DNA from: Candidatus Zhuqueibacterota bacterium
GTDB taxonomy: Bacteria; Zhuqueibacterota; Zhuqueibacteria; Thermofontimicrobiales; Thermofontimicrobiaceae
Direction: 5' to 3'
Assembly (NCBI GenBank): GCA_049322915.1
Contig: JBMOPW010000034.1
Location: forward strand, 188,858-252,857
Length of the DNA stretch: 64,000 nucleotides
How positions within the stretch are numbered: the stretch's first letter is position 1; the number at the start of each line of letters is the position of its first letter. A model generated the notes under the pieces. It did not search any database and was not told the origin of the DNA. It saw only the letters and a list, made by a program, of their open reading frames with translations. Made by a program: the position numbers and the translations under genes. This document shows, in pieces, positions 3,397 to 44,123 of the stretch.

Positions 3397-4701
3397 TTAA
3401 ATTAAAATCCCGGCAATGCACGCCGTTGTCGCAGTTGCCATGGCGCCGGCAAACATAGCGCGCAAACCCAATCGCGCCAGGTCCGAACGTCGTGAGGGAG
3501 CCATCCCGCCAATGCCGCCGATTTGAATAGCGATGGATGAAAAATTGGCAAATCCGCACAACGCATAGGTGGCAATGAGAACCGTGCGCTGGGAGATAAC
3601 GCCCTGTTGAATCATCTGGCCCAAATCCACGTACGCGACAAATTCATTCAGGGTGATTTTTGTCCCCAACAGCGTGGCGAATTCAGGGACATCGCTCCAG
3701 GGCACGCCCATGACAAAAGCGATGGGAGCAAACACCCAACTGAAAACCTGTTTCAGGCTCGATGGGAAAAATGGGACGACATTATTCAATGCCTGGAAGC
3801 CGAAGTTGACCATAGCGATAAGGGCGATGAACGCCAGCAGCATGGCCCCGACATTGAGCGCCAGCTTCAATCCGTCAGCAGCGCCAGTCGCAGCCGCATC
3901 GATGACATTGGCCGTCTCCCGCTCGACCTTCATTTTGACCGTGCCTTTGGTGAGCGGCTCTTCTGTCTCCGGCAGAAAAGTTTTGGCCATGACAAAAGCG
4001 GCTGGCGCGGACATGACGCTGGCAGCCATCATGTGCCCGGGATCGATTCCGAAACGGGCGTAGGCAGCCATCACACCGCCGGCGATGTTCGAGAAACCAC
4101 TGACCATAATCGCCATCAACTCGCTCTTGGTCATGGTCGGCACATAAGGCCGAACGACCAGCGGCGCTTCCGTTTGCCCGACAAAAATATCGAAGGCTAC
4201 CGAGAGCGACTCCGCGCCCGAGGTTCGCATTGTCTTTTGCATGACCCAAGCCATGAGCTGGACAATGCGCTGCATGACGCCGAGATGATAGAGAATCCCC
4301 ATTAACGAAGCGAAGAAGATGATCGTCGGCAGGATATGAAACGCGAAGATGATCCCCAGATCGACGAAGGAACCGCTGGCCGCATCCCAGACCTGAATGG
4401 GTCCGGCGCCCCCCGGGCCAAGATTCTTCACAACGCCTGGATCGCCGCGGTAGATATTGCCGAACAAAAAACTGGCGCCGGCATCGGTGAAGCTGAGCAG
4501 ATGCATAAAAATATCCCGGAAGACGAAGAAAATGCGTTTCCCGATGGGCGTTTTCAAAATGAACAATGCGAACAGCAATTGCAGTCCAATGCCCCAGAGG
4601 ATAACGCGCAGTTGAATCGCTTTCCTGTTCTTGGAGAAAAGTACAGCAATACCGATCAGCACGACGATGCCGACGGCGCTCATGACTCGCTCAAAAATCA
4701 T
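3397..4701 (-). CDS. nupC: NupC/CNT-family nucleoside:cation symporter
   Basis: ORF 3397..4761. The sequence from M21 (MIFERVMSAVGIVVLIGIAVLFSKNRKAIQLRVILWGIGLQLLFALFIL...) matches the typical NupC N-terminus, so I place the start at ~4701. The ORF-track start is 4761. Confidence 0.85.
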   Translation of the reverse strand: MIFERVMSAVGIVVLIGIAVLFSKNRKAIQLRVILWGIGLQLLFALFILKTPIGKRIFFVFRDIFMHLLSFTDAGASFLFGNIYRGDPGVVKNLGPGGAGPIQVWDAASGSFVDLGIIFAFHILPTIIFFASLMGILYHLGVMQRIVQLMAWVMQKTMRTSGAESLSVAFDIFVGQTEAPLVVRPYVPTMTKSELMAIMVSGFSNIAGGVMAAYARFGIDPGHMMAASVMSAPAAFVMAKTFLPETEEPLTKGTVKMKVERETANVIDAAATGAADGLKLALNVGAMLLAFIALIAMVNFGFQALNNVVPFFPSSLKQVFSWVFAPIAFVMGVPWSDVPEFATLLGTKITLNEFVAYVDLGQMIQQGVISQRTVLIATYALCGFANFSSIAIQIGGIGGMAPSRRSDLARLGLRAMFAGAMATATTACIAGILI

Positions 4702-4833
4702 ACTTTGATTCCTTGTAAAAATAAACTGCCTGATATTCGGACATCCATCACGAAGTATCAAGCATGGGTTAGGGATTAACGGTCACACACCGAATTGAAC
4801 CTTTCGAATTGCAACCTGTTCGGAATTGCGTAT

Positions 4834-4890
4834 TCCAAAAATATGAAATTCCGTTGTTTTAACTCACCCGCTATTATTAAACGCAACGGA
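4834..4890 (-). terminator. Possible terminator of the dcm-vsr operon
   Basis: 7-bp stem TCCGTTG / CAACGGA (4850-4856 / 4884-4890), 24 nt after the vsr stop. On the minus strand it is followed by ATTTCATATTTTT. The 27-nt loop is large, so this is weak. Confidence 0.25.
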
Positions 4891-4914
4891 GGAAAAATCA
4901 GGTGTAGTGATTTG

Positions 4915-5331
4915 TTAGGCCACAGTCTTATCTATAAATTCTTTCAATTTATTCATGATTACGGGATCATGATCTCTTAGCTCGCACTCCCAGATGATGA
5001 AATAGCTCCATCCGCTTGCTACTAAAAGCTGATAATTTTCCTGATCACGTCTGACATTATCATGTATCTTTCCTTCCCAGAAATCTTTATTTGACCGTGG
5101 CCACTTGAAATACTTGCAACAATGCTTATGCCAGAAACAACCATGCACAAAGACAGCCTTTTTTCGACGGGAGAAAACTATATCAGGTTTGCCTGGCAGG
5201 TCTTTCCGATGAAGTCGATATCTGTATCCCCGAGACCACAGCCATTTACGAACAAACAACTCCGGTTTTGTGTCCTTGCCTTTTATCCGGGACATGTTGT
5301 AGCTACGTCGTTCCAGCGAGTGAACATCCAT
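4915..5331 (-). CDS. vsr: Very short patch repair (T:G mismatch) endonuclease
   Basis: 138 aa with MSRIKGKDTKPELFVRKWLWSRGYRYRLH...PDIVFSRRKKAVFVHGCFWHKH, the Vsr signature. Its start overlaps the upstream stop as TAATG. Confidence 0.9.
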   Translation of the reverse strand: MDVHSLERRSYNMSRIKGKDTKPELFVRKWLWSRGYRYRLHRKDLPGKPDIVFSRRKKAVFVHGCFWHKHCCKYFKWPRSNKDFWEGKIHDNVRRDQENYQLLVASGWSYFIIWECELRDHDPVIMNKLKEFIDKTVA

Positions 5332-6443
5332 TATTCTGTCTCCCCGGATGTGGCAATCACCTCTCTTATTATTTTGTTTCGATCGATTTCAGGTTGACCT
5401 TGACGGGCATAATAGGAAGAAAAACGTGACAAAATATCTTTCACGAAGTGCGGAGATATCTGAATGTGCGGCTGATTATAAGCGTTCTCGAATTGATCTA
5501 TTGTACATGTTGATATTTTTCTGAAATTAATAAATCCACCATAGAAGTAATCTGTCTCAGGCAACCAGTGAAAATAATCCGTGTAATTATTGCCAAATAA
5601 GTTGTTGAGCTTATTCTTTTTCTTGTCTTTTTGAGTAATGCCATTCAAAGCGACCTCAATAATCGAATTCCTTTCTTCAACTTCTACGAGAAGGATACGG
5701 TCGGTTTTAAAATTGCCATCGCTTCTGACAACCAGATCACAAGCCGGACTTAATAGCACATAAAGGTCATTCCCCTCCCTTTTCCTTACAATGCTTCCAG
5801 TCTTTGGGCCATCCGATAGTGGCGGATAAATATAGACTTCCTCCGGGTAACATTGATTTTCATCTTCATCAAGAATCTGTACAAGATGATTAAGCGTGAA
5901 ACGAAGTAATGCTTTTTCGGTTCTTGTAGGATTTTCTCTCCCATAAATTTCCCACACCCTTAGCTGGGGCAACAGATTCTTCACAAACACCTTATTTAAT
6001 GCCTCCTCTATCTTTCCCCTTCCCCCCATTATTTTCGTCAGTCCTGTATTATAAATTTCAAAAAACACATCCAGTATGTCTTTTTGGTAATCTGCCTCTC
6101 CTTTTTTAAGTACTTTTACCAATTCAGATTTTTCTTCCTCACCTATACTGTCCGGCGTCCCCGTTAGAATAATCACAGGTATTCTGAAAAAAGAATCTTT
6201 GATTTTTTCCAACACATCTTTTCCTCTGTTATCGCCATCAGAAAATTTCAGATCTACAATTGCACCATCAAACGAACCGTCTATTTCATTAAGAGCGTCA
6301 TCTACTGATTTGCATTCTATCAGTTTAAAAACCAGACCAATGCCTTCGTCATTTCTCTTCTTTTGGTAGATCTCAATAGAATCCCTACAAACTTTTAAAT
6401 CCGATTCGTCGTCTTCAATAATCATCAGTTTGATCTCATGCAT
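5331..6443 (-). CDS. Receiver (REC) domain protein with an unrecognised ~240-aa C-terminal domain (REC-X)
   Basis: The N-terminus MHEIKLMIIEDDESD...AIVDLKF...IPVIILTGT...KKGE has the receiver acidic pair, a putative phospho-acceptor D64, and the T and K positions. Residues ~130-370 match no family I recognise. A GGAG Shine-Dalgarno (SD) motif lies 8 nt upstream of the ATG. Confidence 0.8.
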   Translation of the reverse strand: MHEIKLMIIEDDESDLKVCRDSIEIYQKKRNDEGIGLVFKLIECKSVDDALNEIDGSFDGAIVDLKFSDGDNRGKDVLEKIKDSFFRIPVIILTGTPDSIGEEEKSELVKVLKKGEADYQKDILDVFFEIYNTGLTKIMGGRGKIEEALNKVFVKNLLPQLRVWEIYGRENPTRTEKALLRFTLNHLVQILDEDENQCYPEEVYIYPPLSDGPKTGSIVRKREGNDLYVLLSPACDLVVRSDGNFKTDRILLVEVEERNSIIEVALNGITQKDKKKNKLNNLFGNNYTDYFHWLPETDYFYGGFINFRKISTCTIDQFENAYNQPHIQISPHFVKDILSRFSSYYARQGQPEIDRNKIIREVIATSGETE

Positions 6444-6454
6444 GATTAATTCTC

Positions 6455-8626
6455 CTACTTTGGTTGCAATCTGAAAAATGCACCGTTTTCAGATTCAAAT
6501 GCCTTCAGCTCAAGTCCATTCCGGGTGGCTGCTTCACCTGCGATAGACAAGCCGAGTCCTGTACCCTCTGGTTTGGTGGAAAACTGAGGCTCAAATATTA
6601 CTTCGCTGGCTATAAGCTGAGGTTCTATACCTGGGCCGGTATCCCGATAATCAATGTATTGGAGTTCATTTCCGTCTGTTACAATATCGATTGTGATTTC
6701 CTTTTTGGGGGATTTTTTTTCATTTATCCAGTAAATACTATTATCTGCCAAGTTGGTAAAAATCGCATAGATATCCTGATGCCAACCCGTAAATCTGAAG
6801 TCACCGGAACCGTTAACCTTCACAATAATACCGCCTTTTTTCATTTCCTCGCTGAAGACTTTAAATATTTCCTCAATAATTCTTTTGAGTGGCAGTTGTT
6901 CTCTTTTGCTTCTTTTCCCGGCAGCAAGAGGATCAAGACGGCTGAAAAGTTTCACAAACACATCTGCGTTTTTACTGATACCTTCGGTAATTGGAATAAT
7001 CCTTGCCAATGTTTCAGGATCTTGCTTCTCCTTGAAGGAATTCGACCAATACTCCAGATTTGGAATTTGATTCCTGAAGTAATGCAGAGGCCTCCTGCCT
7101 TCATGCAAAATAACGTTAATTATTTTCCCTAAGGTAGCCTGTCCCTGATAAACTGCGACAGCCTGTCTTATCTCTTCAGCGATACTATTCTTGTCTTCTT
7201 CCTCTTTACTTAGAATTTGGATAATTTCATCTGTAGTTTGTAGATCCACTCCGACCTTTTCTAACTTGGCACGAATACCCCGCTTCAATTCGTCGAAAGC
7301 AAACAATCTTTCCAACTCCCGTTCCACCTTAAGAGCAGGTCTGCTCAGTCCGGCACTTTTCCGGTAGTCAAAACGGCGCTCTTCAAGACGGGCAATTACC
7401 TCGCGGGAAATTGCTTTCAGTTTTTCAAAGGCAACGTTCTCCCGCAGTCCGTCTCTGGCACTTTTTTCTATAATGGTGGATTGTTCTTCGGATTGAATCT
7501 GCACATAGCCTATAACCTGATTACTACCTATTCTCAGAGATGGGTTCTGGACGCGCTGTTCATTCAGCTTTAACCAGTCAAAGTCTGCATCGCCAAGAGG
7601 CCTGATCCGGAAGCCATTCCTGTAAACTCCGATTCCATTGTATTCGTTCAGAAGCTCTCTGGCCTGAAGCTTACCGACATAATTCCCGGATTCATCTTTC
7701 AGTCCTCGTCCAATCAAAGACTCTATGGCCTCCTTTTCCCGATCATAAACCCGGATATCAAAAAATAGCTCACCACATCCTGTCGTGCTCCCGAAATCAA
7801 ACGGAATATTTTCCTCTGTGGTGTTTCTGGCTTTTTGCAGGGAGTAGGTCAGACTTCCCTTCCCATCTGCACCGATCCTGCCGGCAATCCTGTAATCAAA
7901 CAGGTCAACAATCGGATATGGCTCCACGTCCTCGTCGATTAATTCTTCCTGACCTTCAAAGAAGTTTTCGAGTCTCAGGTGAATTCTGAAAGTATCTTTG
8001 GCTTCATCACCAGACAAAATACTGCTAACCGGCGACATTAGTTTTTTTAGCTCAAATTTAAGTTTGTCTATTTGTGTCTTATTTTTGATGTCCTTTTTTA
8101 CCCATTCGTTAATGTGTTCACCATTTCCGGTAATTGTCAGGCGTGTCCCAGACGGAAGGTCTGTTTTCTCACTTTCTACAAGTATCTCCACCTCGTCGAG
8201 ATACTGCACTTTTTCAAAACTGGACCACTCAATATAAACCGTTGTTTTTTCACTATCCGCAACGGTTTCAAGGAAGATGTCGTCGCCTAGAATAGATGCA
8301 GCGTAACGGCCAACACCTTTTCGTCCCTGCATTATCCGTCCGTTCGGGCTTTTTCTCCTTTTCAGCTTGTCATCGGTGGATGGGACCATCCATTGATTGA
8401 TTACGGTATCACTGGACATTCCGTGTCCATGATCCTCGATCGTTATTGAGTACTGATTTCGGCTTTCTGAAGCTTTAAATGTTATATATACATCGGGTGA
8501 GTCTGCATCGTACGCATTTTTTACAAGCTCAACTATAGCCGCATACCTGTCTTGTATGAGGTCCCGACCTATGGTAAGTATATGTCTGCCTGCAGGCCTA
8601 ATCAAATACGATTTTCTTGATTCCAC
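6455..8626 (-). CDS. MORC/MutL-like GHKL ATPase (HATPase_c_3-type) fused to a histidine-kinase core (DHp + CA)
   Basis: N-terminal GHKL boxes: IVELVKNAYDAD (N box), ITIEDHGHGM (G1), GRKGVGRYAAS (G2), plus a MORC-like GIGVYRNGFRIRPLG. The H-box is ILHEGRRPLHYF (H508). The C-terminal kinase ATPase has FTNLADNSIYW, YRDTGPGIEP and FSTKPEGTGLGLSIA. The GTG start overlaps the dcm TAG as TAGTG, with AAGGAGG 8 nt upstream. Confidence 0.8.
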   Translation of the reverse strand: MESRKSYLIRPAGRHILTIGRDLIQDRYAAIVELVKNAYDADSPDVYITFKASESRNQYSITIEDHGHGMSSDTVINQWMVPSTDDKLKRRKSPNGRIMQGRKGVGRYAASILGDDIFLETVADSEKTTVYIEWSSFEKVQYLDEVEILVESEKTDLPSGTRLTITGNGEHINEWVKKDIKNKTQIDKLKFELKKLMSPVSSILSGDEAKDTFRIHLRLENFFEGQEELIDEDVEPYPIVDLFDYRIAGRIGADGKGSLTYSLQKARNTTEENIPFDFGSTTGCGELFFDIRVYDREKEAIESLIGRGLKDESGNYVGKLQARELLNEYNGIGVYRNGFRIRPLGDADFDWLKLNEQRVQNPSLRIGSNQVIGYVQIQSEEQSTIIEKSARDGLRENVAFEKLKAISREVIARLEERRFDYRKSAGLSRPALKVERELERLFAFDELKRGIRAKLEKVGVDLQTTDEIIQILSKEEEDKNSIAEEIRQAVAVYQGQATLGKIINVILHEGRRPLHYFRNQIPNLEYWSNSFKEKQDPETLARIIPITEGISKNADVFVKLFSRLDPLAAGKRSKREQLPLKRIIEEIFKVFSEEMKKGGIIVKVNGSGDFRFTGWHQDIYAIFTNLADNSIYWINEKKSPKKEITIDIVTDGNELQYIDYRDTGPGIEPQLIASEVIFEPQFSTKPEGTGLGLSIAGEAATRNGLELKAFESENGAFFRLQPK

Positions 8627-9891
8627 TACAAAACCTCCTTTAATTTTTCCGCTATTCTCTGAGCAAGCAAAACAGGCACAGCGTTACCAATTTGACGGAA
8701 GGCAGGGGTTCTATGTGGAATACCGGATACACTTTCAAAAAAGTAGTCATCAGGGAATGTCTGAATTCTGGCTACTTCCCTTGGTGTCAGAGAACGGTTT
8801 TGTTCAATATCAGGGTGAATATAGTAGTGCCCGTCCTTGGCTATATGGGCGACAACAGTGTGTGAAAATTGCAGATCGCCGGCGACGACCTTAAACCTGT
8901 CCAGAAATGAATTTCTGTGCCGGTGCGTCTTCAGCCTGTCAGGGAGTTGGTTGTAGTTAAGCCTGTTCTTTTTTTTATTCCAGAGTTCAACAACGATCCT
9001 GTAAATTTCAAGGTCATGGTCTCTATTCGGTCGCGCCTGATGCCATGTAACAGATAGTGAATCATTTCTGATACAGGCATCATAGAGATATGATCCGGTG
9101 TATTTTTTGGTTCTGCAGGGACCGAAATCTCCTTGTCCGGCTTGTAATGGAGGAAGGTCCCTGAAAACCTCATAAACCATTACGTTGGTGTGCCATTTAA
9201 CAGGTTCAGGAAAAAAACCTGTACCTTTCCCCAGCTTTCCGACCAAGATGATCCTTTGCCTGCTTTGCAAAACACCATATTCTTCTGCTGCCAGTGTCAT
9301 AAACTCAGTTTCATAACCTGCATCGCGGAATAGACGCCTCATACTGTCAAAATAAAGATTACCGTTTTCATCCTTAGCTGATAGTAGACCAGTAACATTT
9401 TCAAAGACAAACCACAAAGGGCGGTAACGATTAAGAAATTCCGCGTAGTAGACGTATAGATAGTTTCTCCTGTCGCCCTTCATACGGTTTTTGTCTCTTG
9501 AGCGGCCGACGATTGAATATGCTTGGCAGGGCGGCCCTCCGATAATCAGATCAAGCTTGGCACCATTCAGTAATTCATCTGTCTTTCTGAATAGTTCAGG
9601 AAGAGATTCTTTACTGATTTCGGAATTGATGACAGAATTAATGCAATGAACAGGAACGAGGCTGTAAAGAAAGGAACGTGAAACGTTCCCCAACAAATAA
9701 TCATCATATTGCTCAACGCGGCCATGTGTCTTCAACCAGTGATAAGCCATCCGGGTTCGCAGCGTGAAGCATGCAGCCTGATCAGCTTCAATATGCGCTA
9801 TGGGACAGAATCCGGCCCGAATAAATCCTTCGGATAAACCACCAGCCCCTGCAAAAAGGTCAAGAAATATAGGATTATTGTCACTTCTCAT
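8626..9891 (-). CDS. dcm: DNA (cytosine-5)-methyltransferase
   Basis: C5-MTase motifs: DLFAGAGGLSEGF (I), GGPPCQAYS (IV), FVFENVTGL (VI), QSRQRIILVG (VIII), REVARIQTFPDDY and GNAVPVLLA (X). Confidence 0.93.
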   Translation of the reverse strand: MRSDNNPIFLDLFAGAGGLSEGFIRAGFCPIAHIEADQAACFTLRTRMAYHWLKTHGRVEQYDDYLLGNVSRSFLYSLVPVHCINSVINSEISKESLPELFRKTDELLNGAKLDLIIGGPPCQAYSIVGRSRDKNRMKGDRRNYLYVYYAEFLNRYRPLWFVFENVTGLLSAKDENGNLYFDSMRRLFRDAGYETEFMTLAAEEYGVLQSRQRIILVGKLGKGTGFFPEPVKWHTNVMVYEVFRDLPPLQAGQGDFGPCRTKKYTGSYLYDACIRNDSLSVTWHQARPNRDHDLEIYRIVVELWNKKKNRLNYNQLPDRLKTHRHRNSFLDRFKVVAGDLQFSHTVVAHIAKDGHYYIHPDIEQNRSLTPREVARIQTFPDDYFFESVSGIPHRTPAFRQIGNAVPVLLAQRIAEKLKEVL

Positions 9892-9987: not shown

Positions 9988-11475
9988 TCATTGCTGCTGA
10001 GCGGATTGCGATCGCGATGAGAAATATTTCCAGAGAAAATACACAGGAATGCCCAGCAGAACAATGCCCACTCCCGGCACGGTATATTTCGGCTTGAAAA
10101 CGAGAAGATCAATCGAGATCAATGCAATCGCCACCATATAGACCACCGGAAGGATGGGATAACCAAATGCTTTATACGGGCGCTCCGCGTCCGGACGCTT
10201 TTTCCTTAAAATGAACAGGCCAATGACGGTCAGAATGTAAAAAAAGAGAACAGCAAACATGACATAATCGAGCAGGTCGCTGTAGGTGCCGGACAGACAC
10301 AACACACTCGCCCACACGCCCTGAACCACCAGCGCAGCGCCGGGCACGGCCTTTTTATTGAGGACGCCGGCGCCTTTGAAAAACAGCCCATCCTGAGCCA
10401 TGGCATAATACACCCGCGCGCCTGCAAGAATGAGTCCGTTATTACAGCCGAAGGTCGAAATCATGATCAACACCGCCATAATCACAACGGCCGGATCGCC
10501 GAATATCATCGACGCGACGGCCGTGCCAACGCGATCATCCGTGGCGAACTGCAAACCGCGTCCCATGACAGTCGCTTCGGTCGGGCTCCCCTGCACTGGC
10601 AGCACGAGGATGTAAGCGAGATTGGCCAAAATGTACAGCAGCGTGACCGAGATCGTTCCCAGCGCCAGACTCAGCGGCATGTTTCTCTTCGGATTGATGA
10701 TTTCGCCGGCGGTGAACGTCACATTGTTCCAGGCGTCACTGGAGAAAAGCGAACCGACCATGGCTGCCCCGATCGCAGCGACAATCATCATTCCGGCGAG
10801 CGGTTCGATGGAAGCAATGGCGCCGCCGTCAATGTGAGTCCAACTCGCTCTCCAGAAATTGGAAAAATTTGCTGTAATGGCGTCGGCGTTTCTTCCAATC
10901 AAAAGGCCCAGCGCAATCAATCCGAGCAGAGCGACCGTTTTGGTGATGGTGAAGAGATCCTGCACAATCTTGCCCTGCCGCAATCCGCGGGTATTGATGA
11001 AGGTCAGAACGACAATGCTGAGGATAGCGAGCAATCGGGCTGCTGAAATTTTCAATCCCAGGATGGTGAACAGCACGTTTTTCTCGCCCAACGCTGGCAC
11101 GAACACAGCGGTGAACTTCGCGAAGGCGACCGCAACCGCCGCGATCATCCCTGTCTGAATGACCATAAACAGGGTCCAGCCGTAAAGAAAACCGACCAGC
11201 GGATTATAGGCTTCGCGAAGATAGACATATTGCCCCCCGGCTCTGGGCATCATCCCGGCGAGTTCGCCGTAACTGAGCGCGCCGAGGATGGTGATCACGC
11301 CGGTTATCAGCCAGACAAGCAGGAGGTAGCCAGGCCCTCCCACTGTCCGGGAAATATCTGCACTGACGATGAAAATGCCCGAGCCGATCATGGAGCCAAT
11401 CACAATCATGGTGCAATCAAGCAGACGTAATTCTTTTTTAAACTCAGAATGTGATGCTTTGGATGATTGGGTCAT
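9988..11475 (-). CDS. APC-superfamily amino acid permease (LAT/SteT-like)
   Basis: 495 aa, about 12 TM. MIVIGSMIGSGIFIVSADI...GALSYGELAGMMPRAGGQYVYLREAY is typical of APC amino acid transporters. Confidence 0.85.
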   Translation of the reverse strand: MTQSSKASHSEFKKELRLLDCTMIVIGSMIGSGIFIVSADISRTVGGPGYLLLVWLITGVITILGALSYGELAGMMPRAGGQYVYLREAYNPLVGFLYGWTLFMVIQTGMIAAVAVAFAKFTAVFVPALGEKNVLFTILGLKISAARLLAILSIVVLTFINTRGLRQGKIVQDLFTITKTVALLGLIALGLLIGRNADAITANFSNFWRASWTHIDGGAIASIEPLAGMMIVAAIGAAMVGSLFSSDAWNNVTFTAGEIINPKRNMPLSLALGTISVTLLYILANLAYILVLPVQGSPTEATVMGRGLQFATDDRVGTAVASMIFGDPAVVIMAVLIMISTFGCNNGLILAGARVYYAMAQDGLFFKGAGVLNKKAVPGAALVVQGVWASVLCLSGTYSDLLDYVMFAVLFFYILTVIGLFILRKKRPDAERPYKAFGYPILPVVYMVAIALISIDLLVFKPKYTVPGVGIVLLGIPVYFLWKYFSSRSQSAQQQ

Positions 11476-13338: not shown

Positions 13339-14736
13339 CTAATTTTCCTTCCTCGATTTGAAGTTCCAGAATAAATAAACCGGCACTCCCAATGCTACGA
13401 TGATCAAGCCGAATAAGGAGTCTCGCGGATCCGTGATTAGCGTGTTTATGACAAACAAGATAGAGACTAAAATGAATGCGATGGGAATCCAGGGATAGCC
13501 CCAGGTTTTGTAGGGTCGTTCGACGTTCGGCCATTTCTTCCGCAGCACCAAAACAGCGCTGGTTGTGAGGCCGTAAAATAACCAGGCGGCGAAGATGACG
13601 TACGTGAATAGCTGATCGAAGCGCCCGGAGAGCGTCAGTATCGCGGCCCAGATGCCTTGAACAGTCACTGAAACGTGCGGCGTTCTGAATCGGGGATGCA
13701 CATCGCCCATGCTCCTGAAGAATACTCTATCATCCGCCATGGCGTAGGTAACGCGCGCGCCCGAAAGGATCATGCCATTGACTGTGCCGAAGGTGGAGAT
13801 CATCACTGCGGCGGAAATGAGAGCGCCACCGATGGGTCCTAAAAATGTTTTCATGGCATCGGCGGCCACCAGCGTGGACGTGCTGATGTCCTTGATTGGG
13901 AGGACGTAAGCGTACGCCCAGTTGGCGGCAAGGTAGACGATAATGACGACAGAAGTTCCCAAAAATAAGGCGCGCGGGATTGTCCGTTGAGGCTCTTTCA
14001 CCTCAGCGGCGACATAGGTGGTGTTATTCCAGCCATCATACGCCCACAACGCGGCAACCATGGCCACGCCAAACGCGCTGAGCAGGTTGAAAGAAAATTC
14101 TGCCGGTAATAGCGGTTTGAACGCCTCCGGCGAAGCATGGCCAGCAATGAAAGTCAGCACGATCAACCCGGCCAGAGCGGCGACCTTCAAAAATGTGAAG
14201 ATATTTTGAATCCACGCGGCCAATTTCACGCCCAGATAGTTGACAATGGACAGCACGATAATGCAGAGAATAGCCACTGCTTTAACGCCAATATCTTCGA
14301 TGCGAAATTGAAATCCGAGGTCGAGAACGATGGTCTTGTGGAAAAGCGCCTGGAAGGATTCGGGGATGAAATAGCCGACGTACAACGCGAAGGCAACGGC
14401 GACAGCGGCTACGGAGCCAGCCTTGATGACAAGAAACTCGGTCCAGCCGAATAAAAATGCAGGAAAAATACCATACGCCTCGCGCAGATAAACATATTGT
14501 CCGCCGGCATGGGGTATCATGCCACCTAATTCCGCGTACGAGAGCGCGCCAAAAAGAGACAGTAACCCGGCAAAAAACCAAACAAAGATCATGAGTCCAA
14601 AGCTGCCAACCTGAGTAGCGATCGTATTGGGCACCAGGAAAATACCGCTTCCAATAACGGAGCCAATTAGAATCGCTGTCGTGTCCAAAGGGCCAAGCAC
14701 ACGAAGAAGTTTCGGCTCCGAAAGCTCATTGCTCAT
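13339..14736 (-). CDS. APC-superfamily amino acid permease (paralogue of 9988..11475)
   Basis: 465 aa with ILIGSVIGSGIFLVPNTIA...GALSYAELGGMIPHAGGQYVYLREAYG. Its stop is 3 nt before the NSS start. Confidence 0.85.
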   Translation of the reverse strand: MSNELSEPKLLRVLGPLDTTAILIGSVIGSGIFLVPNTIATQVGSFGLMIFVWFFAGLLSLFGALSYAELGGMIPHAGGQYVYLREAYGIFPAFLFGWTEFLVIKAGSVAAVAVAFALYVGYFIPESFQALFHKTIVLDLGFQFRIEDIGVKAVAILCIIVLSIVNYLGVKLAAWIQNIFTFLKVAALAGLIVLTFIAGHASPEAFKPLLPAEFSFNLLSAFGVAMVAALWAYDGWNNTTYVAAEVKEPQRTIPRALFLGTSVVIIVYLAANWAYAYVLPIKDISTSTLVAADAMKTFLGPIGGALISAAVMISTFGTVNGMILSGARVTYAMADDRVFFRSMGDVHPRFRTPHVSVTVQGIWAAILTLSGRFDQLFTYVIFAAWLFYGLTTSAVLVLRKKWPNVERPYKTWGYPWIPIAFILVSILFVINTLITDPRDSLFGLIIVALGVPVYLFWNFKSRKEN

Positions 14737-41682: not shown

Positions 41683-41958
41683 ATGGAACCGCAAATAGCC
41701 AACCGAAGAATTGGCGTTGTCGCCATTATCGTTTACCAACCGGATGATGTATATAACCGGCTCAATGACATCCTTCATGAATTCTCTTCGATCATCATCG
41801 GAAGATTAGGCCTGCCCTACAGGGAGCGTCGCCTCTCAATCATCTCTCTCATCGTTGATGGCAGCACCGACGAAATCGGCGCCATGACCGGCAAAATCGG
41901 TCAGTTGCCTTTTGTCAGTGTGAAAGCGTCTTTTGCAAAGCAGCATTACGAGGGATGA
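41683..41958 (+). CDS. TM1266-like putative iron-only hydrogenase system regulator (small ACT-like protein)
   Basis: 91 aa. IGVVAIIVYQPDDVYNRLNDILHEFSSIIIGRLGLPYRERRLSIISLIVDGSTDEIGAMTGKIGQLPFVSVKA follows the pattern I recall for the TM1266 family (V..IV......N.LLH.FS..I..R.G.P........I.L.V.....IGAL.GK.GQ...V.VK). A strong AGGAGG SD motif is present. Confidence 0.6.
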   Translation: MEPQIANRRIGVVAIIVYQPDDVYNRLNDILHEFSSIIIGRLGLPYRERRLSIISLIVDGSTDEIGAMTGKIGQLPFVSVKASFAKQHYEG

Positions 41959-42047
41959 AACGGCTTTCTCCCGAAATGAATGCGATGAAATATTTAATTG
42001 CCTTCACGGCATTGAACGAGGAGATATTTTTACGGAGGATAGGTGCA

Positions 42048-44123
42048 ATGAAACTGAGAATTGGTACATGGCTCGTTGGTTTTCTTTTATTCGTAGGCGT
42101 CAATGGCTTCGGCCAGGAAGCGGACGTCTCATCCGACAGCGTGCGGTATCGGCTGAACCAGGTTGTCGTGACCGCCAATCGCTACGAGAAAGAAGCGTTT
42201 GAAACCCATATTCCTGTCACCACGATTCAACCGCATGAAGTCTGGCAATCCGGGCTGGACAATGTCGGTGAAATTTTGCAGCAAACGCCGGGCGTGGATT
42301 TCTCCAGCGCCGGTCCGTGGAGCCAGAAATTGGTGATCCGGGGATTGGTCAGTCCTCAGGTACTCACGTTAATCGACGGCATGCGGCTGGATATTTTACG
42401 CGGCTACGGCAATCACGCGCCGCTCATCGACGTCAATCAGGTGGAGCGCATCGAGGTAATTCGCGGGCCGGCGTCGACACTGTACGGCTCCGAAGCCATT
42501 GCCGGCGTTGTGAATTACATCACCCGACAACCGAGTTTCAATTCAACTCAGCGAGCATTTCACGGCAATGCCGGGCTTCACTATTCGAGCGTCAATAATC
42601 AGAGCACGGAGCACGCGCTCGTGACCAGCAATCACGCTCGTTGGTCTCTGCTCGTCGGCGTTTCCAACCGTAAGGCTGACGATATCCGCACACCCACGGG
42701 GACGCTCATCAATACAGCCTTCAACGGCTACACGCTCAACACCAAAATCGGCGCACGTCTTTCCGAGAACCATTCCGTGACTTTGTCCGGCCAGAGCAAC
42801 CGAATGAAGGACGTTGGCGTGCCCACGAATCCCTATTCCATTCGCGCCAAATTTCTGAAGTACAATCACGATGTCATTTCCTTGAATTATGCCTATCAAG
42901 CGAAGCAAAGAACCTGGACCGATTCGAAGCTGACGCTCTATTATCAGCAGGGTGAGCGGAACTTCGAAACATACATTTTTCAAAAGCCCAACGGCGCGCT
43001 GTTCGTGAATCAATTATTGAATGCCAATCGCCAGGTCAATTCCTTTGGCTCGAATTTTCAGAATTCTTTTTCGCTGATTCCAGGCAATGTCCTGGTTGCC
43101 GGCATCGACCTCTATTCCGAATTTGATGAAACCGATCGCATCGCCGATGCGGTCATCAACAACGCGGCAGGCGTCATTGTTAAAGATCCGCCGGCAGATC
43201 TCACGCCGCCGTCGCCGAAAGCCGAACGCAAGAGTCTGGGCGTGTACATCGAAGATGAACATACAGTGGCCACGCGGCTCACTATCACAGCCGGCGCCCG
43301 ATTCGATTACATGATCAGTCACGCGGACGGCACCCCGGCAACGCTCGCCGCGCAAAATATCGACAAGATGGATCAGGATTTCAGCGGCAATCTGGGCGCG
43401 CTGTATCGATTGACGCCGCGGCTGCATCTGATGGCCAATATCGGTCGCGCGTTCAAGGCGCCGACGCTGCAGGAGCGACTTTTCGCCGGCACGGCCCAGG
43501 TCGGCTATCTCTACGGCAATCCTGCGTTGAATTCGGAAAGAAGCCTGAATATGGATGGCGGATTCAAATGGCAGACAGTCAATTTCTCGGGCGAGTTCAA
43601 TCTATTCCATAACCGAATCACTGACTTCATCGTGATGAAACCCATCAGTGCGGCTGCGGACACTTTTCTGTACGACAATGTCGGCAAAGCAGCTCTGTTC
43701 GGGGGCGAGCTGCAAATTCGCTACAACTTAACGCGTCGGATATCACTGCTGGTGAGTTCCTCCTACACCCGGGGCGAGGATGAAACCAGCGGCGACGCCC
43801 TGCCAAAAGTGCCGCCGTTTCAGGGAATCGTGGGACTTCGGTTTGATGGAACCGGTCGCGCTTACTGGATCGAATTCAATGGGCGATTTGTCGCAGCGCA
43901 GGACCGTGTCGCGGATGATGAACCGGCGACGGATGGGTATAATCTGTTCAATTTCAGTTCCGGAATCAATGTGCAATCGGTCATTCGTTCTTCGTTTCCG
44001 CTGTACGTGACATTTCACGTCAGAAATTTATTTGACAAAAGCTATCGGGATCATCTGTCGTACGTGACGTGGTGGGACGCGCCAGGCCGGAATATCAGTA
44101 TCGGATTGAACAGCAGTTTTTGA
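42048..44123 (+). CDS. TonB-dependent outer-membrane receptor
   Basis: ORF 41955..44123. The signal peptide starts at M32 (MKLRIGTWLVGFLLFVGVNGFGQ). Plug motifs: VVVTANRYEKEAFE and IEVIRGPASTLYGSEAIAGVVNYIT. C-terminal barrel ends NISIGLNSSF. Confidence 0.9.
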   Translation: MKLRIGTWLVGFLLFVGVNGFGQEADVSSDSVRYRLNQVVVTANRYEKEAFETHIPVTTIQPHEVWQSGLDNVGEILQQTPGVDFSSAGPWSQKLVIRGLVSPQVLTLIDGMRLDILRGYGNHAPLIDVNQVERIEVIRGPASTLYGSEAIAGVVNYITRQPSFNSTQRAFHGNAGLHYSSVNNQSTEHALVTSNHARWSLLVGVSNRKADDIRTPTGTLINTAFNGYTLNTKIGARLSENHSVTLSGQSNRMKDVGVPTNPYSIRAKFLKYNHDVISLNYAYQAKQRTWTDSKLTLYYQQGERNFETYIFQKPNGALFVNQLLNANRQVNSFGSNFQNSFSLIPGNVLVAGIDLYSEFDETDRIADAVINNAAGVIVKDPPADLTPPSPKAERKSLGVYIEDEHTVATRLTITAGARFDYMISHADGTPATLAAQNIDKMDQDFSGNLGALYRLTPRLHLMANIGRAFKAPTLQERLFAGTAQVGYLYGNPALNSERSLNMDGGFKWQTVNFSGEFNLFHNRITDFIVMKPISAAADTFLYDNVGKAALFGGELQIRYNLTRRISLLVSSSYTRGEDETSGDALPKVPPFQGIVGLRFDGTGRAYWIEFNGRFVAAQDRVADDEPATDGYNLFNFSSGINVQSVIRSSFPLYVTFHVRNLFDKSYRDHLSYVTWWDAPGRNISIGLNSSF

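Follow-up and report, generated by a model that had tools for sequence, protein, structure and literature searches.

A MORC-like ATPase module joined to a histidine-kinase core, encoded in a Dcm-kinase-regulator-Vsr cassette of a Zhuqueibacterota bacterium

In a stretch of 64,000 nucleotides from Candidatus Zhuqueibacterota bacterium (assembly GCA_049322915.1, contig JBMOPW010000034.1, positions 188,858 to 252,857 of the forward strand; hereafter the window, to which all nucleotide coordinates refer), we analysed a gene for a sensor kinase of 723 amino acids (aa) that combines two GHKL ATPase modules in a single polypeptide. The kinase gene is the second of four genes arranged end to end on the minus strand, the others encoding a cytosine DNA methyltransferase (Dcm), a partner response regulator and the very-short-patch repair endonuclease Vsr. 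On our reading, the cassette acts in a restriction-like or addiction-like manner and a His-Asp phosphorelay gates it; we assign this reading a probability of about one in two. Both the architecture of the kinase and its genomic context have already been published, and the gene in the window comes from a branch outside the current models. An earlier interpretation made from the letters of the DNA (the sequence-only reading) had recognised the architecture and suggested a DNA-related input, but had missed the strand, the partner regulator, the operon and the prior description. The kinase can be divided as follows, from the N-terminus to the C-terminus.

6455..8626, minus strand: the whole gene, a double-GHKL sensor kinase of 723 aa with a paraMORC-type ATPase module, a helical linker with DHp, and a CA domain
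8099..8557, minus strand: N-terminal Bergerat-fold GHKL ATPase domain, residues ~24-176 (HATPase_c_3, PDB profile matches, motif invariance)
7442..8074, minus strand: middle domain, residues ~185-395, a candidate S5-like transducer (AlphaFold2 model, Foldseek, invariance)
6923..7435, minus strand: helical linker and DHp, residues ~398-568 (AlphaFold2 helices, invariant H-box, alignment to 3a0r_A)
6461..6901, minus strand: histidine-kinase CA GHKL domain, residues ~576-722 (HATPase_c, PDB kinase chains, Foldseek, invariance)

In the list of open reading frames (ORFs) of the window, a 723-codon frame with a GTG start spans exactly 6455..8626 on the minus strand; a plus-strand reading of the same interval is broken by many stops and was rejected. 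Pfam assigns HATPase_c_3 (PF13589) to residues 29-141 (E 7.9e-18; score 65 bits, cut-off 25) and HATPase_c (PF02518) to residues 618-721 (E 1.1e-18), which bears out the earlier claim that two GHKL modules reside in one polypeptide. Every motif quoted by the sequence-only reading sits at the residue numbers it had given: ELVKNAYDAD (33-42), EDHGHGM (64-70) and GRKGVGRY (101-108) in the first GHKL module, the MORC-like segment GIGVYRNGFRIRPLG (331-345), the H-box ILHEGRRPLHYF (506-517, including H508), and NLADNS (625-630), DTGPGI (662-667) and GTGLGLS (688-694) in the second module. The same reading had described a protein with no transmembrane segments and no PAS or GAF domains. Indeed, Pfam detects neither these nor any other sensor domain in the kinase, and the highest 19-residue Kyte-Doolittle mean is 1.15, so that a transmembrane segment is not likely and the protein should be soluble. 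Conservation was evaluated over 58 close homologues plus six more at 37-69% identity for the kinase and over 79 homologues for the regulator; these are the sets meant below wherever invariance is mentioned. All catalytic motifs of the kinase are invariant among homologues as low as 37% identity, and therefore the two ATP sites and the phospho-accepting histidine appear to be under strong constraint. A 722-aa ORF at 41955-44123 was checked as a possible paralogue of the kinase and is not one.

The sequence-only reading had itself named an alternative, namely that the ORF is two genes joined by an assembly error. This alternative is refuted by the relatives. Among the further clusters listed (66-88% identity), 118 of 119 are 712-772 aa long and have both Pfam domains. 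The full-length fusion of ~720 aa is also encoded in the complete chromosome of Desulfovibrio desulfuricans and in many independent assemblies, and full-length relatives at 37-62% identity are present on plasmids of Enterobacter, Hymenobacter, Bacillus and Campylobacter. The fusion is therefore not an assembly artefact but one true gene, and a chimera of two genes can be ruled out.

The N-terminal half of the kinase is where a sensor would ordinarily be expected. In its GHKL domain Bergerat-fold motifs I-IV are intact, and E33, N37, D65xGxG69, Q100-G-x-K103-G104-x-G106 and T121 are invariant. The sequence-only reading would have been undermined had this half failed to align to the HATPase_c_3 profile; it does align, with ATP-binding motifs both intact and invariant. 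A profile of the N-terminal half searched against PDB sequences finds HtpG (E 4e-6), MORC3 (6e-5) and MutL (2.6e-4), all within the GHKL region. Together, Pfam and motif invariance uphold the view that the sensor position is held by a GHKL ATPase of the MORC/MutL/Hsp90 type.

In the AlphaFold2 model of the kinase (mean pLDDT 69) four parts are seen, ~24-176, ~185-395, 398-568 and 576-722, of which the second is a mixed alpha/beta domain. Two segments of this middle domain are invariant, GxGxYRxxFRIRPxGD (331-346) and EKSxRxG (387-393, with E387-K388-S389). When the kinase model was compared with the PDB by Foldseek, the ATPase module of SMCHD1 ranked first (E 3.8e-12), followed by MORC2 (including its DNA complexes), MORC3, MORC4 and Hsp90, over 410-500 aligned columns. 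The matches to SMCHD1 and MORC2/3/4 have E values of 4e-12 to 1e-9 and modest TM scores of 0.4-0.5, obtained with a query model of pLDDT 69. An S5-like transducer after the first GHKL domain, which the sequence-only reading had proposed to look for, is accordingly supported by MORC/SMCHD1 likeness in a medium-confidence model but not at the sequence level, where the profile search against PDB sequences gave no match for residues 180-400 (nothing past residue ~220). We consider such a transducer likely but unproven, because the profile of the N-terminal half reaches solved proteins only inside the GHKL domain. That this module clamps DNA, and that nucleic-acid state is the input of the kinase, is something we infer.

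The C-terminal half has the features of a histidine-kinase core. AlphaFold2 predicts helices at 398-425, 431-457, 462-508, 514-534 and 537-568, with low pLDDT over 474-515. The earlier description of residues 400-500 as coiled-coil-like thus agrees with the long helices of the 398-568 part, yet the confidence of the model is low there. The H-box is H508-E-G-R-R-P513 (His codon at 7103-7105; residues 508-512 at 7091-7105); H508, R511 and P513 are invariant or nearly so, and position 509 is E or D in all 58 close and all six distant homologues. We note that this H-box reads as HisKA-like. In a phmmer search of PDB sequences, residues 509-719, that is from E509, one residue after H508, align to the sensor kinase chain 3a0r_A, and other solved kinase chains also align to this half. 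Foldseek matches of the C-terminal half include HK853, YF1 chimeras and CpxA. Invariant positions of the CA domain comprise N625 and N629 (N box), D662xGxG666 (G1), F678, F682 and K685 (F box) and G688xGxG692 (G2). The phosphatase motif of HisKA kinases carries T or N at position H+4, whereas the homologues of the window kinase have R or K there; taken with general knowledge of HisKA, this residue hints at a kinase-only (monofunctional) enzyme.

The remaining members of the cassette are the following.

8626..9891, minus strand: Dcm-like C5 cytosine DNA methyltransferase, 421 aa, first gene (Pfam, TIGR, PADLOC)
5331..6443, minus strand: response regulator, 370 aa, starting 11 nt past the kinase stop and preceded by an AGGAG Shine-Dalgarno sequence
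4915..5331, minus strand: Vsr very-short-patch repair endonuclease, 138 aa, last gene (Pfam, TIGR, PADLOC)

Both flanking enzymes are readily identified, Dcm by Pfam DNA_methylase (E 2.7e-53), TIGR00675 dcm (E 1.2e-43) and a DrmMII-type PADLOC model (E 2.8e-163), and Vsr by Pfam (E 1.8e-32), TIGR00632 (E 9e-44) and PADLOC (E 3e-29). The TAG stop of Dcm and the GTG start of the kinase have one base in common, as do the TAA stop of the regulator and the ATG of Vsr; all four genes show translational coupling. With a DNA methyltransferase coupled to the kinase on one side and the regulator and Vsr on the other, the context strengthens the DNA-related input that the sequence-only reading had proposed. 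The cassette contains a methyltransferase, and the only nuclease recognised in it is Vsr, a repair nickase.

The cassette forms a low-GC island, with a GC content of 37-45% versus 48-56% in the flanks (window 4500-9500). It is bordered by a nucleoside transporter gene (3397-4761) and by amino-acid permease genes (9988-11475 and 13339-14736). We found no flanking repeats, integrase or tRNA around it, promoter and terminator scans of the cassette gave no convincing signal sequences, and Rfam and tRNA scans of the whole window revealed no non-coding RNA.

A phosphorelay would require a receiver, and the partner regulator carries one. Three parts can be distinguished.

6090..6443, minus strand: receiver (REC) domain, regulator residues 1-118 (AlphaFold2 fold, Foldseek, weak Pfam)
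5871-6089, minus strand: two-helix linker, residues 119-191 (AlphaFold2 model)
5349..5861, minus strand: C-terminal alpha/beta domain, residues ~195-365, putative effector (AlphaFold2, conservation)

The AlphaFold2 model of the regulator has a pLDDT of 85; the REC part is a (beta-alpha)5 fold at pLDDT ~90 and the C-terminal domain lies mostly at 80-93. Pfam Response_reg matches weakly (E 0.049), and Foldseek returns solved receivers at TM scores of 0.7-0.77, the second-ranked being RR468 in complex with HK853. The phospho-acceptor set consists of E10-D11, D64 (codon 6252-6254), T94 and K114. Position 10 is E in 77 of the 79 homologues and D in the other two, D11, D64 and T94 are present in all 79, and position 114 is K or R throughout.

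The conservation of the regulator extends well beyond its receiver. E176, R181, E202, Y204, C235, D236, N285, H292, N306, R308, K335, D336, R340, R347, Q348 and Q350 are invariant, C235-D236 lying inside a P-A-C-D motif, and E201, D248 and E256 are acidic in all 79 homologues. The C-terminal domain also has an acidic cluster. In the most distant regulators the polar invariants left are R181, E202, C235, D236, K335, D336, R347 and Q348. Judging by these residues, the conservation pattern of the C-terminal domain looks like that of an enzyme active site. Two specific assignments were considered and abandoned: a MazF/PemK-like reading ('GSIV...VLLSPA') was rejected at an hhalign probability of 0.4%, and an HNH (beta-beta-alpha-Me) interpretation of H292/N306 was given up, since distant homologues keep neither residue. 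A profile of the C-terminal domain searched against PDB sequences gave nothing at E<=10, Pfam scans of 14 regulator members gave scattered chance matches only, and Foldseek with the whole regulator model (PDB, BFVD) gave receiver-domain matches only. The domain itself is common, with 1051 representative clusters at 50% identity; among the best 150 of these, most are REC plus C-terminal domain proteins of 340-390 aa and the rest, one apart, are shorter, probably partial. The exception, a protein of 571 aa (P0284), joins an N-terminal part of a C5 methylase (105-244) to the regulator C-terminal domain (335-567); this is probably either a deletion product of such a cassette or a gene-call artefact.

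The order Dcm-kinase-regulator(-Vsr) is found again in several phyla. Amid unrelated flanks it is kept in Desulfovibrio desulfuricans, Marispirochaeta, Thermodesulfobacteriota and further assemblies, and it is also present on plasmids of Hymenobacter, Bacillus and Campylobacter. We take the cassette to be self-contained and horizontally mobile. A scan of the genome collection returned three loci only, and neither DNA nor protein searches found relatives in E. coli or phages. Across phyla the kinase is far better conserved than its partners: between the window and loci L002-L005, identity is 66-87% for the kinase, 46-73% for the regulator, 45-75% for Vsr and 67-75% for Dcm. In L002 (9166-10437) the regulator match is split into residues 1-270 and 287-370 with ~210 extra bases between them, and in L003 (5135-5509) Vsr is located upstream on the opposite strand instead of downstream. 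A kinase of 37% identity occurs in 41 plasmid records of Campylobacter jejuni/coli, mostly conjugative and 50-75 kb in size. In L008, the one locus of this kind that was examined, the kinase has the regulator and a convergent dcm next to it, and VirB4, VapD and HicB genes are near.

Two relatives depart from this arrangement. In the closest genome relative, L001 (a metagenome-assembled genome of Nitrospirae, JALUUO010000061.1, 110-1002), the kinase is 87% identical to that of the window, and kinase, regulator and Vsr are all intact. Its Dcm is a 41-aa remnant, 97.6% identical to residues 159-199 of the window Dcm and then ended by a stop; in Dcm's place there is a 256-aa ORF with an HNH_2 domain (PF13391, E 2e-12), which overlaps the kinase start. 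The second, L007 on the Enterobacter mori plasmid NZ_CP119171.1 (5001-8223), keeps both kinase and regulator intact (62% and 46% identity, respectively); no homologue of Dcm or Vsr is present within 5 kb, and a 1.3-kb unannotated gap lies upstream. It has the appearance of an orphan pair. Possible explanations for the two loci are an unlinked methylase, an altered logic with HNH_2 as the partner, or recent decay.

Distant variants, at 23-28% identity, share the two-GHKL layout. In Allorhizobium the kinase is accompanied by an N6_N4 methylase and a 409-aa partner ending in a common C-terminal tail, '...R(F/Y)xxYxxRxGxPxI'. On a Burkholderia aenigmatica plasmid (L016, 3128-8297), an N6 methylase and a two-GHKL kinase are accompanied by a receiver protein of 228 aa and a hydrolase of the metallo-beta-lactamase (MBL) fold; on a Klebsiella variicola plasmid (L020, 3167-8036), an N6 methylase and a kinase are accompanied by a receiver-like protein of 168 aa and a borderline HNH gene. 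The Klebsiella kinase is broken into three ORFs and is therefore probably a pseudogene. The loci of Burkholderia glumae and Rhizobium gallicum encode Vsr and Dcm together with a kinase-like protein and a partner of ~400 aa. What stays constant is the kinase-receiver pair; the class of the methylase varies. Moreover, where the receiver protein is short, a nuclease-type gene comes next, in the position of the fused C-terminal domain of the window regulator. Modularity of this kind is typical of restriction-modification and defence systems.

To what is observed (a parts list, intact catalytic residues, an operon and its conservation), the reading that we find best supported adds a signal, a direction of switching and an effector chemistry. 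On ATP binding, the N-terminal GHKL and middle domains would dimerise, either around DNA without the mark of the linked methylase or as a response to such DNA. The movement would be transmitted through the long helical linker to the DHp, the CA domain would autophosphorylate H508, and the phosphate would pass from the kinase to D64 of the regulator. Phosphorylation would then free the regulator C-terminal domain, whose most likely identity is that of a metal-dependent nuclease or some other toxic enzyme, and the released effector would attack unmodified (foreign) DNA or the cell. Dcm would shield self DNA, and Vsr would mend the T:G mismatches that result from deamination of 5-methylcytosine. 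The regulator's C-terminal domain is probably the effector, because variants with short receivers carry a nuclease-type gene in the same position; it is by this position, not by demonstrated homology, that it would be a nuclease. A fuller version of the model, in which the cassette by itself makes up an entire restriction system or one for post-segregational killing, the MORC-like clamp reads the methylation mark, the phosphorelay, instead of direct contact between protein and DNA, decides whether to cut or to spare, and the effector, the nuclease or toxin itself, has an unclassified fold with a P-x-C-D motif and an acidic cluster, is put forward tentatively, and we would give it somewhat less than even odds.

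Several observations tell against the phosphorelay-gated system. Searches of Pfam, PADLOC and PDB sequences match the regulator C-terminal domain to no nuclease or toxin family already described, and H292 and N306 are lost in its most distant homologues. The transducer assignment depends on a model of pLDDT 69 with TM scores of only 0.4-0.5. L001 and L007 keep an intact kinase and regulator with no linked methylase, which is awkward for a strict model where unmethylated DNA is lethal. PADLOC has no model for the kinase-regulator pair, and a targeted literature search found no functional study of the family.

The pair might instead be an ordinary two-component system that controls transcription of the linked methylase or restriction-modification genes, controller-like, through a DNA-binding output domain. 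In agreement with this, the H-box and receiver residues are canonical, signalling that controls restriction-modification systems has been suggested as a speculation (PMC8011034), and the regulator C-terminal domain could be a new DNA-binding fold. However, Pfam finds no helix-turn-helix, winged-helix or other output domain in the regulator. Its 250-aa domain, in which some 20 polar or charged positions are invariant, among them a Cys-Asp pair and an acidic cluster, suits an enzyme better; the cassette has no separate restriction enzyme to control; and genes for HNH proteins or MBL-fold hydrolases come after the REC protein in distant variants. We therefore consider transcriptional control unlikely.

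We see even less room for a helper of very-short-patch repair, in which a MutL-like module would aid Vsr at T:G mismatches, in the manner of E. coli MutL, and the phosphorelay would tune repair. Vsr does lie immediately downstream, here and in most close relatives, the N-terminal half of the kinase shows GHKL similarity to MutL, and a functional interaction between MutL and Vsr is cited in PMC2292703. But the kinase-REC pair also occurs with N6/N4 methylases and no Vsr, the Campylobacter plasmids have dcm and no annotated Vsr, L007 has neither, and the module is structurally nearer to MORC/SMCHD1 than to MutL.

Just as improbable as the repair helper is the idea that the 723-aa protein is itself a restriction enzyme, its kinase-like half being a mere dimerisation or ATPase scaffold that performs no phosphotransfer. 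A restriction endonuclease is implied by the REBASE-style name of R.EcoUTORF4938P, PADLOC labels the kinase N-terminus REase_II, and related GHKL N-domains occur in genuine type II enzymes (the BbrUII/HgiDII match; R.HgiDII, PMC2441816). The likeness stops at the GHKL domain, however: the PADLOC type II models match the kinase N-terminus only, and the BbrUII/HgiDII model NF050001 covers only residues 20-167 (E 2e-15), scoring 56.3 bits where the cut-off is 550. In kinase residues 180-570, Pfam, Foldseek and profile search show no nuclease motif or fold. Furthermore, H508 and receiver D64, T94 and K114 are strictly invariant, which a protein that performs no phosphotransfer would hardly account for. 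Finally, a cytoplasmic sensor whose N-terminal GHKL domain reads nucleoside triphosphate (NTP) concentration rather than DNA (a speculation in PMC8011034) would suit an intact N-domain ATP site and a soluble protein, but is very improbable indeed, as it leaves unexplained both the near-obligatory linkage to several classes of DNA methyltransferase and the MORC/SMCHD1-like second domain. Overall, most of these rivals fit poorly with a methylase class that varies and an output domain that resembles an enzyme.

If the mechanism proposed for the phosphorelay-gated cassette is right, it would join two-component signalling to restriction-modification, both among the most thoroughly studied bacterial paradigms, through a soluble kinase whose input is a DNA-directed MORC-type ATPase. 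In the fuller version of the model, DNA modification state would be the signal of a histidine kinase, and the regulator C-terminal domain would represent a new nuclease or toxin family. Such a system would also offer a tractable bacterial model for the reading of DNA or methylation by MORC/SMCHD1-type proteins. The family is widespread, with the regulator domain in ~1000 clusters (50% identity), and the copies on conjugative Campylobacter plasmids could influence plasmid maintenance and DNA uptake.

Proteins of this type have been noticed before. Orlowski and Bujnicki (2008) described the putative restriction endonuclease R.EcoUTORF4938P, with a GHKL N-terminus and a histidine-kinase-like C-terminus bearing N, D(G1), F and G motifs (PMC2441816). 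Compared by description, it resembles the window kinase in its two GHKL domains, its unassigned middle region and its listing among restriction-modification components; it was noted in passing only, and no partner regulator or phosphorelay was proposed (PMC2441816). We could not locate it in UTI89 around 4.92-4.97 Mb. BbrUII/HgiDII (NF050001) shares a homologous GHKL N-domain and a C5 methylase partner, whereas nothing past the GHKL domain matches.

The closest account is that of Bellieny-Rabelo et al. (2021), who reported HATPase_c_3 + HEF_HK + HATPase_c proteins beside Response_reg_2 partners (PMC8011034). Across 644 regions, their histidine kinase-like (HK-like) and response regulator-like (RR-like) set shows 91.6% linkage; C5 methylases lie upstream, Vsr lies downstream, and the set covers delta-proteobacteria such as Desulfovibrio. 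The HK-like proteins are related to paraMORCs, and a regulatory or NTP-sensing role was proposed with no experiments (PMC8011034). The window cassette shares with these pairs the three-part soluble kinase, the adjacent receiver-containing partner, the C5 methylase upstream and Vsr downstream, and differs in that the published account gives the regulator C-terminal domain no role (PMC8011034). It is worth pointing out that HEF_HK (PF19191) matches neither the window kinase (E<=1) nor five relatives at 37-69% identity (E<=0.1). The model was present in the searched library, because an Acinetobacter baumannii relative gave a sub-threshold match to it (E 0.0023, 18.8 bits versus 24.1). Response_reg_2 (PF19192), whose presence in the library is unconfirmed, matched none of the regulators tested. 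The clade of the window therefore falls outside the published Pfam models, and PF19191 and PF19192 appear too narrow for the family they should define.

Iyer et al. (2008) described MORC and paraMORC1-5 ATPases of GHKL+S5 type in restriction-modification operons containing Dcm and Vsr, and did not mention receiver domains (PMC2292703). In VcSduA, a paraMORC3 GHKL domain is fused to a Shedu nuclease, and experiments show that such a GHKL domain can gate a nuclease in phage defence (PMC12137116). The likeness to the window kinase consists of an intact N-terminal GHKL domain followed by a second domain and, for the paraMORC operons, the presence of Dcm and Vsr (PMC2292703). In those systems, though, a nuclease or helicase, either fused or adjacent, serves as partner, whereas here the output consists of a DHp-CA core and a separate REC-effector protein. 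In Detocs, an anti-phage system, the REC domain that the kinase phosphorylates is joined to an effector that does not bind DNA, the effectors being modular and including restriction endonuclease and TOPRIM types (10.1101/2023.01.24.525353). Detocs has a TPR sensor (DtcA), a REC-only buffer (DtcB), usually a PNP ATP-nucleosidase effector (DtcC) and no linked methylase (10.1101/2023.01.24.525353); the window cassette shows no TPR, third REC gene or PNP domain, and PADLOC gave no match to its regulator. Detocs and VcSduA are experimentally supported functional analogues, and if our reading of the cassette is true, it would be a second, mechanistically distinct defensive two-component system beside Detocs, one that could reveal a new effector fold.

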